64,000 nucleotides of DNA from Candidatus Latescibacterota bacterium (GTDB taxonomy: Bacteria; Latescibacterota; UBA2968). Location: the NCBI GenBank assembly GCA_965116885.1, contig OZ220741.1, positions 4,480,001 to 4,544,000 of the forward strand. The letters run 5' to 3'. Positions 55,619-63,516 of this stretch are shown here, piece by piece (position 1 is the stretch's first letter; every line of letters begins with the position of its first letter). A model generated the notes under the pieces. That model worked only from the letters and a program-made list of their open reading frames with translations. It was not told the origin of the DNA and made no database searches. The position numbers were made by a program, and so were the translations under genes.

Positions 55619-55694
55619 TGGCAGGCCAGGCAGGACTTGAACCCGCAACCGTCGGTTTTGGAGACCGATGCTCTACCAGTTGAGCTACTGACCT
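55619..55694 (-). tRNA. tRNA-Trp (CCA)
   Basis: AGGTCAGTAGCTCAACTGGTAGAGC...CT-CCA-AA...GGTTCAAGTCC...GCCA. Confidence 0.97.
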
Positions 55695-55706
55695 ACCCAA
55701 AAACAA

Positions 55707-55782
<76 letters not shown>

Positions 55783-55807
55783 GTTGGGCAATCCCCACTT
55801 GAGATTC

Positions 55808-55884
55808 TGGAGCGGGAAACGGGACTCGAACCCGCGACCCTCAGCTTGGAAGGCTGACGCTCTGGCCAACTGAGCTATTCCCGC
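55808..55884 (-). tRNA. tRNA-Gly (TCC)
   Basis: GCGGGAATAGCTCAG...CT-TCC-AA...GGTTCGAGTCC...TCCA. Confidence 0.97.
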
Positions 55885-57340: not shown

Positions 57341-58099
57341 TCAATTCCAATATTCACTTTGTGCAGGAGGTCCAGACTTTAATGCCCTGTGAATCAACAG
57401 GCCCAAAACACGCGTAAAAACCACCAGTAAAAAAAAATTAAACACCGAAGTCAGCACCAAACCCACCCAGGCCAACTGTCCCAATATCAAACTGCCGAGC
57501 AGAGATATCCCAAACAGACCAAAACACGCTTGAATGTAGTCGGATCGAACAATCTGGCGCAAATCCCTCCAAACAGGCCCCGGCTCAAATACCATCCACA
57601 CACGTCCCTTAGCGGCAAATCGCGTAAATACAACGGGAAAAAAAATATAAAAAAAGACGACCATAAGTGTAACCAACAGCAACAGAGGCCCGGCTTCTTC
57701 TACAGAACTCGGTATCAAACCGAATACCGAAATTACCATTGCAAAACTCGCAAATCCAATGACGCTATATCCCAGGACAATGAGGAACAACCAGAAGCCC
57801 GCTAATCCATAAGCCCACCAATTGCTCCACGAGGGCAAGGTCAGCGATTCAGTACCGTTGAGCGCATCGACAAAAATCCGATATAAGTAGCCCCAGGCAA
57901 TGAACAATAATCCAAAGGTTACCACCGCCAACACGCCCCCCATCCAGAGCCTTATTTGTCCGGTGAAAATCAGCGCCAGCACCAGCGCGGACAGCAAATT
58001 TAATGCGCCGCCAGGGACAATTTTTTGCCACCATCCAGGCGTCTGAAACACAGCGCGGAGTGTATTAAATAAAATAATGCCAAACATAGCTTTCCACAT
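57341..58099 (-). CDS. DUF4013-like membrane protein
   Basis: WWQKIVPGG, WGYLYRIF, LPSWSNW; multiple TM segments; start may be 58087. Confidence 0.65.
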   Translation of the reverse strand: MWKAMFGIILFNTLRAVFQTPGWWQKIVPGGALNLLSALVLALIFTGQIRLWMGGVLAVVTFGLLFIAWGYLYRIFVDALNGTESLTLPSWSNWWAYGLAGFWLFLIVLGYSVIGFASFAMVISVFGLIPSSVEEAGPLLLLVTLMVVFFYIFFPVVFTRFAAKGRVWMVFEPGPVWRDLRQIVRSDYIQACFGLFGISLLGSLILGQLAWVGLVLTSVFNFFLLVVFTRVLGLLIHRALKSGPPAQSEYWN

Positions 58100-58100
58100 G

Positions 58101-59294
58101 TCAGACTGCGTCAAGTGCCCGTCTAACATCGGCAATAATATCCTCGGCGTCTTCAATGCCCACGGCATAGCGCACCAACTCATCGGCAATGCCAATTGCC
58201 AATCGGTCTTCGCGTGCCAATTCGTAATACGAAATAGATGCGGGATGCGAAACAAGACTCTCCACACCACCCAGACTGGCCCCGATACACGGGATTTTCA
58301 AACGGTCAATAAAATCCAGCGTACCTGCCTCATCCGCATCTAAATCAAAACTCACCAGCCCACCAAATCCACGCATCTGCGCTTTGGCAACATCGTGGTG
58401 TGGGTGGCTTTCCAAACCGGGATAATACACGCGCTTTACCCGATCGTGCTTTTCCAAAAACCGCGCCAACATCAGTGCCGTTTCATTTTGCTTACCCATT
58501 CGCAGTGGAAAAGTCTTGATCCCCCGGATCAGCAAATAAGCGCAATGAGGATCGATCACCCCTCCCAAAATACCTCGATAGTCTCGAATCGCACCAATCA
58601 GGGGCGCATTGCCCAGCACAGCACCAGCCATCAAATCGTTGTGCCCCCCCAAATACTTGGTCGCTGAGTGAATGACCAGATCGATGCCAAATTCGAGCGG
58701 GCACTGGTTTAAGGGCGTTGCAAATGTGCTGTCAATAATCGTTTTGACCCGATGCCTTTTTCCAATGTCAACCAGCTTTTCCAGATCGATTACATTGAGA
58801 TGGGGATTTGTCGGAGATTCGGAAATAATCACGCGCGTGTTATCCCTGATCGCGCCTTCCAATTCGGCGTAATCACCCGCGTGTACAAATGTGGTTTCAA
58901 TGCCAAATTTTTTTAACACCATCTGGCAAAATTGCGCGGTTTTGCGATAGCAATCATCCATAATCACCGCGTGGTGCCCGGTTGAGAGCATGCCCAGCAG
59001 CGTGGTTGTTACAGCACTCATACCCGAGGAAAATAAAATAGCAGCCTCTGCGCCTTCCAATTCTGCCAGCTTGGATTCTGCTGCATGCTGTGTTGGATTG
59101 CCATAGCGTCCGTAGTCAATCTGTGGATTTTTGCCCGCCACAAATGCTTTAACCGCATGTGTATCTTCAAATACATAAGTCGATGTTTGCGCAATGGGCA
59201 CTGTCAGAGAATTTCCCCAGTGTCCCCTTTCTTCACCTGCATGTACAGCCCGTGTCCCCGAACAGGGCACAGGCGTTTCGCACTTTTCAGACAT
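58101..59294 (-). CDS. metB: Cystathionine gamma-synthase, plant-type (Cys/Met metabolism PLP enzyme)
   Basis: YGRYGNPT, DCYRKT, ESPTNP, TFATPLNQ, HSATKYLGGHND (PLP lysine). Confidence 0.85.
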   Translation of the reverse strand: MSEKCETPVPCSGTRAVHAGEERGHWGNSLTVPIAQTSTYVFEDTHAVKAFVAGKNPQIDYGRYGNPTQHAAESKLAELEGAEAAILFSSGMSAVTTTLLGMLSTGHHAVIMDDCYRKTAQFCQMVLKKFGIETTFVHAGDYAELEGAIRDNTRVIISESPTNPHLNVIDLEKLVDIGKRHRVKTIIDSTFATPLNQCPLEFGIDLVIHSATKYLGGHNDLMAGAVLGNAPLIGAIRDYRGILGGVIDPHCAYLLIRGIKTFPLRMGKQNETALMLARFLEKHDRVKRVYYPGLESHPHHDVAKAQMRGFGGLVSFDLDADEAGTLDFIDRLKIPCIGASLGGVESLVSHPASISYYELAREDRLAIGIADELVRYAVGIEDAEDIIADVRRALDAV

Positions 59295-59305
59295 GCGCCA
59301 TCTCC

Positions 59306-59335
59306 AAAAAAAAAGCGGAGCCACAAAAGCCCCGC
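59306..59335 (-). terminator. Second leader terminator directly before the metB RBS
   Basis: GCGGGGC-TTTTGTG-GCTCCGC-T9, then GGAGA...ATG. Confidence 0.7.
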
Positions 59336-59344
59336 GCAGTACGC

Positions 59345-59372
59345 AAAAAACCGGACTAAAAAGCCCGGTTTT
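59345..59372 (-). terminator. Riboswitch expression-platform terminator
   Basis: AAAACCGGGC-TTTTTA-GTCCGGTTTTTT. Confidence 0.8.
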
Positions 59373-59381
59373 GGGAATAAC

Positions 59382-59430
59382 TTTTTAGCGACTTGTTTAA
59401 AGTGGCTGCAATATGCCGCAAATCACCACT
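59382..59430 (-). ncRNA. SAM-II (SAM-alpha) riboswitch aptamer
   Basis: AGTGGTGATTTG-CGGCATA-TTGCA-GCCACT-TTAAA-CAAGTC-GCTAAAAA matches the SAM-II pseudoknot pattern; upstream of a Met biosynthesis gene. Confidence 0.88.
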
Positions 59431-59450
59431 CGCCATAGCTGTATTTTGAC

Positions 59451-59479
59451 AATGTAATCAAAACCCTCAACCCTGTCAA
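59451..59479 (-). promoter_or_regulatory. metB promoter
   Basis: TTGACA-17 nt-TACATT, about 20 nt upstream of the aptamer. Confidence 0.75.
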
Positions 59480-59499
59480 CTCCCGCATTGAGTATCTGA

Positions 59500-59521
59500 T
59501 TTTATCTGCGTCCATCTGCGG
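59500..59521 (-). repeat. 10-nt tandem repeat x2 (CCGCAGATGG ACGCAGATAA AA)
   Basis: Same family as 221-253. Confidence 0.65.
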
Positions 59522-59532
59522 ATGTCTGTCAA

Positions 59533-60882
59533 CTATCTGTTGGCTTCAATCCGGTCGAGAATCGCCTTTTTTACTGCATCGATTTCAGGGGGCAACACAA
59601 CGGGTTCATTGCGGTAATGCGGGCTTACCTCCCAATCCCGTAACTGATCCCGATGATATCCGAGCTTAAACTCACTAAACTTCAACCCGTGAGCCGTTGA
59701 AATCACGATCACGCGATCGCTTTTCTGAATTACGCCCCTGTCAATCAACTTGAACAATACGGCGAAAGCCACCCCGGTGTGCGGGCATGCAAACAAGCCC
59801 GTACGGTCGGCACGCGCAGCCGCATCGGCCAATTCCTCCTCGCTGGCTTGTTCTACGACACCACCGAAGATTTTGAGCGTTTGAATCGCTTTTTCTCGAC
59901 TCACCGGATTGCCGATCTGAATCGCACTGGCCAATGTCGGCTGTGCCTGAATCGGTTCAAAACTATCAAAATTCTTTTCAAAACTTCGGTAGAGCGGATT
60001 TGCCCTGTCGGCCTGGGCAACCGCAATGCGCGGCAACCGGTCAATTAAACCGAGGGCTTTCATTTCGAGAAATCCCTTACCGAGCGCACTCACATTGCCC
60101 AGATTTCCGCCGGGAATCACAACCCAGTCGGGCACTTCCCAATCAAATTGCTGCACCAACTCGATGCTGATTGTTTTTTGCCCCTCTACCCTCAGTGAAT
60201 TCATCGAATTGGCCAAATAGATATTTTCCTCGCGGCAAATCTCCTGCACGAGCCTCATACATCCATCAAAGTCGGTCTCTAAACTCAGCACCAGCGCACC
60301 ATTGGCCAGGGGCTGCAAAAGTTGTGCAGTCGAAATCTTATCCCTCGGCAAAAAGACCACCGATTGTATGCCCGCCGCTGCACAATACGCAGCCAACGCC
60401 GCCGAGGTATCCCCAGTAGATGCACACGCAACCGCCGGAATACGAGCCCCTTCAAATAGCATCTGTTTCACCATGGATACCAGCACCGTCATGCCCAAAT
60501 CTTTGAACGATCCCGTATGGCTGTTACCGCATTGCTTAACCCACAAATCCTCAATACCAATTTCTCGGCCCAAACGCTCGGCCCAAAACAGATTGCTACC
60601 CCCTTCGTACATCGACACCACATTGTCTTCGTGAACCACGGGACAGACCAGTTCTTTTTTTCCCCACACCGAACTGCCATAAGGCCATGTGGTAGTCATA
60701 TAACGCTTATCAAACAATTCGCGCCAATAACTACCCGACTTGCGCTTGAGCATCTCCATATCGTGCGCCACTTCGAGCAACCCTCCGCACGTTGGACATG
60801 CGTAAATCACATCCGTCAACGCATATCGACCTTCGCATCCGCGAAAACACCGAAACCACGCATTATAAGTTGTATCGTTCAT
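59533..60882 (-). CDS. thrC: Threonine synthase, plant-type
   Basis: [16 protein letters not shown] (PLP lysine), [31 protein letters not shown]. Confidence 0.95.
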
Positions 60883-60907
60883 AATCGCCGCCAATATAGA
60901 TAATTTC

Positions 60908-61675
60908 TCAAATCCGCTCCAGCGCACGCGCCTCAATCCAGCCGCCGAGACCCGACCGCAGGCGCACCAGCAACCACCCACCTTCAACGCGCTCAATCTC
61001 GACCTTGGTGCCTTCGTGGAGCGTGAACACCTGTAAAAAATCGGAGCCAGGCCCGCTGCGGCCAATAGCCTCATCCACCAAAATGATAGCTTTGGGAATG
61101 CTGTGTTGATGCGCCTTAAACGCAAGCATCGCCGCACTGCCCAAAAATCCGACCACAAAAACCACCAGCAACCCACTCCACAGCAAACGACGGACTGGCA
61201 CAAAAATCCAACACACCGCCACACCGCCTATCAAAAAAACAAATACACAAACCATAACTGCCAGCGCGTCGAGGGCAAAAAACGCAAAAACCGCTTGCAA
61301 AAGCCGCGTCAAAATATTGACCTCATCCTCGCTTTCTCGATCAATCTTCTGGGCATTGGCAAACTGCAAATTCGCCAGAACATCCCGATCGCCTGGCATC
61401 AATTTCAAAGCGCGTTCATAAGATAAAATCGCACGTCCGAGCCGCGCGTTTTTAAAATACGCATTGCCCAGATTATAATACACCTCACCGTTGTTCAGCC
61501 CCTGTGCAATTACGCGTTCATAAGCCGAAATCGCCGCATCAAAATCCCCGGCGCGGTAGTGTTCATTGCCCCGATTGTACAGCGCGACAAGAGCTTCTGA
61601 GGCGAATACCGCATCCACGCCAAGTATCGCAACTGCGACAACGGGGTATAACAGCCGTTCTATCACCGTCCTCAT
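60908..61675 (-). CDS. batE: BatE-like TPR/TM/SH3 protein
   Basis: [10 protein letters not shown]...[20 protein letters not shown]...GWI. Confidence 0.88.
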
Positions 61676-61677
61676 AA

Positions 61678-63516
61678 CTAAATACACCGCTCCAGCGCAC
61701 CGATCAAATCTTCGGTCTGCGCGAACAACGCCTGCATCTGCTCTGCCGAAATCTGTCCCGGCGCAAACCGCGCCTGATCGCATTGACCAAATACGTCTTG
61801 AACGCCCGAAATTACCTGTGTATCTACACCGTGACCCACCAGCACAGCACCAATCTGGTCCGCCGTTAAACCCGCCGCAGCGCGATTGGTTCGATCTGCG
61901 ACAAACTGCGCCAAAGACCTGTGAACTTCACCGTGAAAACCCGCACTATCTCCCGCCTCCATTAACCCTTTGGCCTTGCCCAACCGCCGCTGTGCTTCCG
62001 AGCGCGAACGCCTTCTGCGCGCATAAGCGACATCACCTTCCAGACGCGCGCGATGACGCCGATAAGCATACGCGCCAACCACCCCCAAAAAGGGAACCAA
62101 CTGCAAAAGCCAAAACCCACTGCGCTGATAGAGTAACAGACTCTGATCGACCAAATGCATTCGATCGGGCTTGATATACCGAATATCGCTGCCCAGCGCG
62201 CGCACTTCTTCACCCCGCAACCCGTCAACTGGCTGCGGTGCCAATTCACCTGGCGTCACATGCAACGTAATGGGTTTGGTCTGTACGGTTTTATACCGCC
62301 TCTGCACAGGATCAAAATAGGCCAGGGTAAAAGGCGGTAATATCACCTGCCCCGCTTTTTGCGGGATCGCCACATATTCAAAAGTTTTTTTTCCGCTTAT
62401 ACCCTGCTTTTGTGTTTCCAAATTCGTCTTGGGATCATAAAACTTAAACCGCGCCCGGTCAGGACGAATCGGCTCGCCAATCGCGTGCAAGTTTCCCGCT
62501 CCCTGTACCACCACCTTCACAGCAACGGGATCGCCAGCTTTTACCTTATCAGGAATCGCCTCAGCGCGCATCTCAAATTGCCCAACAGCACCGCCAAAAC
62601 CCTTCGGCGCACCAGCAGGCAACGGTTTCACCTCAATTTCAATATCGCCTGACCGCACTGTCACCTGCTGCGTATCAAACGCACCAAATGGATCAAAATC
62701 GAACAGACCGCGCGACCGTCGCCCCGCAACAATTTCGCAATTCACCTCAAGTTGCTCCAGGGTGTGCTTACCCGCCGTTGTCGGAAACAGTGCCAAACGC
62801 TTAAGCAATGCCGTATTAAACGCGCGCCCATCGACAACCTCTCGCTGCATATTCAAACGCTGAGCATCAAACACAGTCTCTGCCCAAAATCCCGTAAATG
62901 TCGGCACATGGCCGTATTGCACATTTCGCAAATCATAACGCGTAAACAATTTATAGGTCACTCCCACTTGTTCCCCCACATAAACCACTCGCTTTTCGGG
63001 AATCGCCTGCAAAAACAAATTTTGTTCAATTTCCCGAATCTCTGACCGTCCCATTGACCGTCCCGTTGATGGCGCGGGGCGCGTCTGCGGACGACCACTC
63101 CTTTTCACTACCTCAACGCGCACCTGGTCAGACCGAATTGTCTTACCATCATGAGCCAACTGCGCCGGACCGAGCACATAAGTGCCTTGTCTCTGTGCGC
63201 GAAAAGAAAAAACATACGCTGTCGTGCGCTTTGTTGTCATCTCGCCATTGGCAATATTGACGGACATTGACGTAGAAGACGTACTACCCGTCAATTGCAA
63301 CCCATCAGGTGTGGGAACCTGGGGTGCAGACACACTACCCATCTGTGCAGCCTCAACCTCCACAGTGAACTGGATCAAATCGCCAACTTCTACCCGAGTG
63401 CGATCTACTGACGCCTGCACCGTCACATCCTGTGCATCAATCCCCTGTGCCCACAACAGAGCAAACAAAACACCGCACAAAAATATCCACCTTTTCCTAC
63501 CATGCATTGCCATCAT
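61678..63516 (-). CDS. batD: BatD family protein
   Basis: ASVDRTRVEVG, VYVGEQ, GAVGQF, YFDP, DIRYIK. Confidence 0.9.
   Translation of the reverse strand: MMAMHGRKRWIFLCGVLFALLWAQGIDAQDVTVQASVDRTRVEVGDLIQFTVEVEAAQMGSVSAPQVPTPDGLQLTGSTSSTSMSVNIANGEMTTKRTTAYVFSFRAQRQGTYVLGPAQLAHDGKTIRSDQVRVEVVKRSGRPQTRPAPSTGRSMGRSEIREIEQNLFLQAIPEKRVVYVGEQVGVTYKLFTRYDLRNVQYGHVPTFTGFWAETVFDAQRLNMQREVVDGRAFNTALLKRLALFPTTAGKHTLEQLEVNCEIVAGRRSRGLFDFDPFGAFDTQQVTVRSGDIEIEVKPLPAGAPKGFGGAVGQFEMRAEAIPDKVKAGDPVAVKVVVQGAGNLHAIGEPIRPDRARFKFYDPKTNLETQKQGISGKKTFEYVAIPQKAGQVILPPFTLAYFDPVQRRYKTVQTKPITLHVTPGELAPQPVDGLRGEEVRALGSDIRYIKPDRMHLVDQSLLLYQRSGFWLLQLVPFLGVVGAYAYRRHRARLEGDVAYARRRRSRSEAQRRLGKAKGLMEAGDSAGFHGEVHRSLAQFVADRTNRAAAGLTADQIGAVLVGHGVDTQVISGVQDVFGQCDQARFAPGQISAEQMQALFAQTEDLIGALERCI

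Follow-up and report, generated by a model that had tools for sequence, protein, structure and literature searches.

The window is the 64,000-nt stretch of DNA analyzed here. It comes from a Candidatus Latescibacterota MAG with a genome of 5.56 Mb in a single contig. Candidatus Latescibacterota belongs to the FCB group in the NCBI taxonomy. The stretch is represented in runs labelled sponge metagenome, and the host is an uncultured, sponge-associated Latescibacterota bacterium. The locus contains the following features, given in the direction of transcription.

59533-61224, minus strand: upstream gene, threonine-synthase-like; the riboswitch leader lies between it and the Cys/Met PLP gene
59474-59479, minus strand: predicted -35 hexamer TTGACA, from a consensus scan
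59451-59456, minus strand: predicted -10 hexamer TACATT, from a consensus scan; kept in genera g1, g5, g6, g7, and g9
59364-59439, minus strand: SAM-II aptamer (Rfam RF00521, SAM_alpha), 44.0 bits over model positions 1-79
59425-59430, minus strand: P1 5' strand AGUGGU, pairing with GCCACU
59419-59424, minus strand: GAUUUG, a helix strand of the earlier note, pairing with CAAGUC
59408-59417, minus strand: pseudoknot P2 5' strand in the P1 loop (GGC...UUGC), pairing with the tail
59401-59406, minus strand: P1 3' strand GCCACU, pairing with AGUGGU
59390-59395, minus strand: CAAGUC, the other strand of the earlier note's helix, pairing with GAUUUG
59379-59389, minus strand: 3' tail GCUAAAAAGUU, the P2 3' strand and proposed switching strand, from P2 pairing and the duplex with the T1 apex
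59380-59389, minus strand: tail core GCUAAAAAGU, read from the sequence
59347-59372, with U's to 59345, minus strand: terminator T1, AAAACCGGGCU-UUUU-AGUCCGGUUUU, with an 11-bp stem, a UUUU loop, and U6, predicted at -14.8 kcal/mol
59355-59365, minus strand: T1 apex GGCUUUUUAGU, the proposed antiterminator partner of the tail, with 11 pairs and a duplex of -10.0 kcal/mol
59355-59364, minus strand: T1 apex core GCUUUUUAGU, with 10 to 11 pairs to the tail (8 Watson-Crick pairs and G-U ends)
59306-59335, minus strand: terminator T2, GCGGGGC-UUUUGUG-GCUCCGC plus U9, with 8 pairs (6 G-C) at -13.4 kcal/mol, directly 5' of the ribosome-binding site
59301-59305, minus strand: Shine-Dalgarno GGAGA, read from the sequence, 6 nt 5' of the ATG (59294)
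58101-59294, minus strand: putatively regulated gene, a Cys/Met-metabolism PLP enzyme of the cystathionine gamma-synthase family, 397 aa (PF01053, 441 bits)

The best NCBIfam matches of the regulated enzyme were the cystathionine gamma-synthase family, methionine gamma-lyase, and O-succinylhomoserine sulfhydrylase, all under their equivalog cut-offs. Its best relatives are encoded in Candidatus Latescibacterota MAGs, the top one at 97% identity and the next five at 77 to 68%. A DUF4013-family ORF of 309 aa with a GTG start (57341-58270, minus strand) overlaps the 3' end of the gene by 170 nt. The ORF probably begins downstream of the listed GTG, and it may share an operon with the regulated gene. 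The upstream threonine-synthase-like protein matches TIGR00260 with 222.7 bits over residues 193 to 517, and its N-terminal extension of about 190 residues has no family match. The window also contains a three-tRNA cluster at 55622-55884 (minus strand; 67.8 to 72.2 bits). At 60908-63516 (minus strand), a TPR/SH3 protein weakly similar to BatC and a BatD-domain protein are part of an upstream Bat (aerotolerance-type) operon.

The predicted promoter is TTGACA-N17-TACATT. It has a 17-nt spacer and 10 of 12 consensus matches. The promoter scan alone was not significant, with 2 sites against 1.3 expected in shuffles, and for this reason the call rests on conservation and not on the scan. A TTGACA-N16-18-TnnnWT promoter is present within 60 nt upstream in 55 of the 73 SAM-II copies of the phylum, at the same distance and between diverged flanks. 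The promoter that the earlier note had placed ahead of the aptamer on the minus strand is thus present, at 59479-59451. Transcription from this sigma-70-type promoter would start about 12 nt 5' of P1.

The search with the Rfam SAM_alpha model, which the earlier note had proposed as a check, gave a match at 59439-59364 on the minus strand that exceeds the gathering score (36) with an E value of 1.3e-6. The same score was obtained genome-wide, where it was the only RF00521 match in the 5.56 Mb. The element is the sole SAM riboswitch found in the genome among SAM-I, SAM-II, and SAM-V. SAM-I had no match in the genome, and SAM-V had none either, in a search whose own controls were likewise unmatched. 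A second RF00521 copy, as expected of tandem aptamers, was absent from the window and the genome.

The aptamer was aligned with its relatives, giving 43 distinct sequences. P1 was 98.8% paired among them, with both-side changes at three of the six pairs, and none of 500 shuffles reached its score. P1 therefore stands where it had been drawn before. The pairing GAUUUG:CAAGUC of the same note is present in the sequence and is weakly supported in relatives. It was 80.7% paired, with one pair failing in 16 of 43 aptamers and compensatory change at one of six pairs. As the pseudoknot, this poorly kept helix was replaced by a pairing of the tail with the P1 loop. The proximal part of P2 joins UUGC to the tail GC-AA in four invariant pairs (100% paired). 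The distal part, GGC:GUU, consists of three pairs that were 91.5% paired with both-side changes at all three. These P2 values are somewhat inflated because the structure was drawn partly from the same aligned sequences and partly after the crystal structure (2QWY, as cited in the literature). In the metX SAM-II model, as described in the structural report, SAM binding draws the equivalent A-rich 3' strand into P2b (PMC5352136), and the loop-to-tail pairing in the window agrees with that account. The switching logic is stronger for this change, since the strand that engages the 3' half of the P1 loop is the tail itself. With the Rfam score and covariation in both P1 and P2, there is hardly any doubt that the element is a SAM-II riboswitch, as first read.

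The region between the aptamer and the start codon contains two G+C-rich hairpins with U-tracts, T1 and T2. T1 is the intrinsic terminator that had been recognized behind the aptamer before. The interval then described ended ahead of T2, which was missed. A 26-codon ORF (59356-59436, minus strand) runs from ATG 59436, in the aptamer 5' flank, to a TAG in the T1 loop. It was rejected as a leader peptide because several congeners, among them G045, G067, and G007, lack the ATG. The full-length minimum-energy fold also pairs the P1 3' strand with the Shine-Dalgarno and ATG region, and this was treated as a folding artefact.

The placement of T1 and T2 bears on translational control of the kind known from metX, in which SAM binding would hide the ribosome-binding site. 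The RNA that serves as the structural model works this way (PMC5352136, PMC9373788), and one copy in the phylum has a compatible layout. This copy is the second aptamer of L087, where a small hairpin and GGGAG-ATG come right after the tail. In the window, the GGAGA at 59305-59301 lies 74 nt past the tail with both terminators in between, and no conserved anti-Shine-Dalgarno pairing was seen. The Shine-Dalgarno of the metX type lies in the P2b 3' strand, whereas the tail in the window is followed by UUAUUCCC. We consider translational control very improbable here.

The tail is common to two helices, P2 (59389-59379) and a helix with the T1 apex (59365-59355). In the T1 apex, the loop is flanked by the final three pairs of the 5' strand and by the first three nucleotides of the 3' strand. 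The tail/apex helix and the T1 stem are mutually exclusive because they are crossing helices without linker nucleotides. When the nascent RNA was folded, the antiterminator was the minimum-energy structure at 3' end 59353, and T1 had taken its place at 59349. It was the minimum at just one of the sampled nascent lengths. As a hairpin, the antiterminator is predicted at -6.9 to -9.8 kcal/mol. This is much weaker than T1 (-14.8 kcal/mol), so a switch built on it must be kinetic.

The aptamer could also be real and the tail/apex complementarity incidental, with control exerted through another antiterminator, Rho, or RNA stability. The thermodynamic weakness of the antiterminator fits this account. 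So does the geometry of the hairpin, since a GCU/AGC stem top closing a U-rich loop will of necessity be reverse-complementary to GCUAAAAAGC. We scanned the whole genome with one fixed rule and found 5,096 terminator-like hairpins, or 5,094 after removal of the leader's own two. U-rich is the commonest loop type among them (TTTT in 35 and TTT in 30 of 5,096), which also favors coincidence. Against this background, which is drawn from one genome, the energy of the tail/T1 duplex was reached by 0.18% of the 5,094 hairpins (p = 0.0018). The apex motif CTTTTT[AG]G occurs in 17 of the 5,096 hairpins (0.33%), and it lies within 130 nt of the tail in 50 of the 73 SAM-II leaders of the phylum, a contrast that speaks against coincidence. 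Outside the window, at about 1,684,500-1,685,150 of G000:C1, five terminator-like hairpins are clustered with repeated GCTTTTT[AG]GCTGTTTTTTTAG-like units. This cluster supplies 5 of the 17 hairpins with the motif.

RF00521 was found in 60 of 151 sampled genomes of the phylum. These include 29 of 29 in the family of the window, 18 of 19 in its sister family, and 10 of 64 in a third family. There were 73 matches in the phylum, 66 of them over the cut-off. SAM-II lies 5' of the orthologous gene in all six close Latescibacterota loci (L001 to L006), and most of the 73 copies have a Cys/Met enzyme gene downstream. At least one terminator-like hairpin was present within 260 nt of the aptamer in 66 of 73 copies, and at least two in 30; none was detected in the other 7. 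The tail duplex with the best hairpin had a p of 0.01 or less in 10 of 15 genera. Weaker genera are g3 (0.067), g4 (0.27), g11 (0.12), g15 (0.022), and g16 (0.033). The lack of strong complementarity in g3, g4, and g11 counts in favor of coincidence.

Between the copies, the spacer from tail to hairpin varies from 8 to 90 nt without recognizable similarity. The stems differ as well (CCGGG/UCCGG, CUGGGG/CUUCAG, CCCGCG/CGCGGG, and CAACG/CGUUG), and the apex is constant. In G093 and G076, tails with AAAGAG in place of AAAAAG stand opposite apexes with four or three U's, so the U-run of the apex tracks the A-run of the tail. Both observations argue against incidental complementarity, as does the recurrence of the apex design in one Gemmatimonadales group (GUCUUUUUGGC) and in a Calditrichaceae copy (GGCUUUUAGC, p 0.0079). 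Conservation of the apex is not fully independent between genera because the leaders are homologous. Rhizobial SAM-II leaders use another partner for the terminator, which shows that the apex design is not obligatory and leaves some room for coincidence. On balance we regard coincidence as improbable. The antiterminator of tail and terminator apex, which the earlier note had read from this one leader, is supported by the genome background and is kept across genera while the stems change.

Two further arrangements were observed in the phylum. Several genomes carry another SAM-II copy, of like terminator design, 5' of L-threonine 3-dehydrogenase, at L088:1660-2799 (plus strand) and L145:2-661 (minus strand) and in L144, L112, L139, and L113. 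The L088 dehydrogenase matches NF003808 with 399.7 bits (cut-off, 380). SAM-II upstream of tdh ties threonine-to-glycine (one-carbon) catabolism to the SAM level. This tdh-linked copy is absent from the window's own genome. G076 contains a true SAM-II doublet at L087:1501-1760 (plus strand). Its first aptamer has a terminator, and the tail of the second is directly followed by a small hairpin, GGGAG, and ATG. The doublet resembles the bi-mechanism doublets described by Sherlock et al. 2022 (PMC9481103).

The apex of T2, GGCUUUUGUGGC, forms 11 pairs with the tail, with one bulge, at -8.4 kcal/mol. This duplex energy was reached by 0.71% of the 5,094 genome hairpins (p = 0.0071). The scanner found a second hairpin in 19 of 20 genomes of the window's genus, and the leader of G007 has one hairpin. 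In the sister family, a single terminator stands where T2 does, and its apex is fully complementary to the tail (duplex of -14.7 to -15.0 kcal/mol, p 0.0004 to 0.0008). The T2 apexes are complementary to the tail in g1 (p 0.002 to 0.014) and in g5 (GACUUGCUUAGC, p 0.0024). Tandem hairpins are also present in g5, g9, and g13. Both hairpins are complementary to the tail in g5 where the scanner detected both (G117), and both carry CUUUUURG, the tail complement, in g9. In g13, the upstream hairpin is weakly complementary, and the downstream hairpin has a p of 0.001 to 0.008.

T2 still forms in folding when the T1 antiterminator is enforced, and tail/T1 pairing alone therefore leaves read-through into the gene unexplained. 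A hairpin that could hold the T2 5' strand, UUUUGCG-UAC-UGCGCGGGG at 59348-59330, rests on four G-U pairs and was set aside as an anti-T2 structure. T2 may serve either as constitutive trimming of read-through or as a second check by the same tail. The terminator behind the metA riboswitch of S. meliloti is described as constitutive trimming (PMC9373788). For the second check, once polymerase escapes T1, the more stable T1 hairpin would displace the tail. The freed tail could then be captured by SAM in the pseudoknot or could pair with the T2 apex about 36 nt further on. One aptamer would thus pass two sequential checkpoints, and SAM occupancy would be sampled twice per transcript. If true, the response would be steeper and tighter than with a single terminator and would need no second aptamer. 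We put this forward tentatively, as a possibility with the odds against it.

RNA-library contigs span the aptamer, T1, T2, and the ORF in three of four runs (X1, 59028-59542; X3, 58802-59427; X5, 58603-59516). The X5 contig is from a diverged strain. In X2, the riboswitch coincides with a gap at 59330-59438, and contig ends fall at 59329 and 59427. The runs were available as assembled contigs, from which starts, ends, strand, and level are not readable and in which DNA may be present. They place the region in those libraries and nothing more, and they are weak support for expression.

We propose that the element is a transcriptional OFF switch for a transsulfuration/sulfhydrylation gene, and we give this full mechanism a probability of about 0.78. 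With SAM bound, the A-rich tail (59389-59379) would be held in an H-type pseudoknot by the P1 loop, leaving the T1 hairpin (59372-59347) to form and RNA polymerase to terminate in the U-tract near 59345. Without SAM, the free tail would pair with the T1 apex over 10 to 11 bp as the apex emerges. This helix would exclude the T1 stem, and polymerase would read on. The decision would be kinetic, the antiterminator being the weaker structure.

The main product may instead be the short leader RNA (about 100 or 140 nt) left by termination, acting in trans or as a SAM sponge, with control in cis secondary. Such an RNA would be like the S. meliloti sRNAs RZ and RA, and its production is compatible with an OFF switch. 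Two strong terminators in series would yield abundant short RNAs, and terminated SAM-II RNAs of S. meliloti are reported to accumulate and to be stabilized at high SAM (PMC9373788). The element is, however, always directly 5' of a methionine-related or tdh gene where the gene was callable, and this constant place fits control in cis. A short RNA as the main product thus seems unlikely to us, and we retain the OFF switch as the preferred reading.

The SAM-II class, the type of mechanism, and the presence of SAM-II beyond Proteobacteria were known before. What is new is the host phylum, comparative support for an antiterminator that targets the terminator apex, a platform that contrasts with the rhizobial one, and terminators in tandem that are complementary to the tail. 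The wiring is unusual but not revolutionary, and the expression platform is lineage-specific. The findings annotate the regulation of methionine and SAM supply in an uncultured phylum and widen the documented range of SAM-II to further FCB-group phyla. Short and readable from end to end, the leader lends itself as a natural template to studies of how a pseudoknot riboswitch exerts kinetic control, and to a direct test of whether one aptamer can gate two terminators. None of these findings overturns current understanding.

The founding paper reported the metA element from alpha-proteobacteria, from a small number of other proteobacteria, and from the Bacteroides group, many copies having a terminator behind them (Corbino et al. 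2005, PMC1273637). Barrick and Breaker 2007 list Bacteroidetes among SAM-II hosts (PMC2258182). Their account couples SAM-II to expression platforms via the distal pseudoknot and names it as the aptamer most often tied to regulatory terminators. A transcriptional platform is thus the norm and not the exception, and the earlier note's presentation of it as a departure from usual SAM-II does not hold. The host, in the Latescibacterota of the FCB group, does lie outside Proteobacteria as that note had said. The novelty claimed on this account is overstated, given the Bacteroides copies reported since 2005 (PMC1273637). The papers found on Latescibacter and riboswitches did not concern SAM-II by their titles or the openings of their abstracts.

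Among 80 loci with relatives of the regulated enzyme, SAM-II lies 5' of the gene in six, all from Latescibacterota. SAM-I lies 5' of the gene in 13 others, including loci labelled Anaerolineae, Chloroflexales, Caldilineaceae, and Myxococcales. A pattern scan for the A5 tail gave, among the matches listed, Rhizobiaceae, other alpha-proteobacteria, many Gemmatimonadales, a Calditrichaceae MAG, and Latescibacterota. RF00521 confirmed 13 of 15 pattern-scan loci tested, and by the scan and the model together SAM-II is also present in Gemmatimonadota and Calditrichota. L159 (Campylobacterales) and L205 matched the DNA pattern and did not match RF00521 at gathering, and both were dropped. A SAM-II-like string in L070 (Pirellulaceae) was also dropped, as Rfam had no match at an E value of 1 or less in L070:1000-1520. 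L195, a record titled Leptospira interrogans (JBNOAI010000002.1), carries a rhizobial-type SAM-II at 81.6 bits, which is unexpected for a spirochaete. It may be a mis-binned or contaminant contig.

The element shares with the SAM-II class (RF00521) P1, the loop-to-tail pseudoknot, and the invariant UUGC and GCUAAA. It also shares a promoter few nucleotides 5' of P1, a methionine-pathway gene, and an intrinsic terminator. It differs in its host phylum and in its A5 tail, where the consensus has AAAGAG; A5 is common to Rhizobiaceae and Gemmatimonadales. Its score is modest beside that of a Rhizobium copy (44 against 82.7 bits).

The SAM-II of S. meliloti metZ is predicted to terminate, and a short RNA is produced (Scheuer et al. 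2022, PMC9373788). The window resembles the rhizobial metZ-like leaders (S. meliloti metZ; Rhizobium L153, L155, L172, and others) in having one aptamer that would turn expression OFF by intrinsic termination. In both, the tail region is common to the pseudoknot and the antiterminator. In the Rhizobiaceae leaders, as read from their sequences, AGACCGG right after the A-run complements the terminator 5' strand CCGGUCU, and the duplex of tail and hairpin is unremarkable (p 0.046 to 0.93). In the window, by contrast, it is the A-run that pairs with the U-rich apex, and the leader has two terminators. The apex-targeted platform looks like a trait common to FCB-group SAM-II copies (Latescibacterota, some Gemmatimonadales, and Calditrichaceae), unlike the rhizobial platform.

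Two sequential decision points in one leader of sulfur or SAM genes are also known from the tandem SAM-II/SAM-II and SAM-II/SAM-V arrangements of Sherlock et al. 2022 (PMC9481103). Two aptamers are used there and one in the window. The wordings "two terminator" and "tandem terminator" had no occurrences in the tandem-riboswitch review. A similar layout is that of the c-di-GMP-I riboswitch Bc1 of the Bacillus cereus group, reported to have a dual terminator in which the ligand acts on T1 alone, an effect that T2 masks (Liu et al. 2024, PMC11218506). Each of the two leaders has a single aptamer and, behind it, a pair of rho-independent terminators spaced by a few tens of nucleotides. Bc1 has another ligand and aptamer, and the complementarity of both apexes to the switching strand, as seen in the window, is not reported for Bc1 in the available text of that study.
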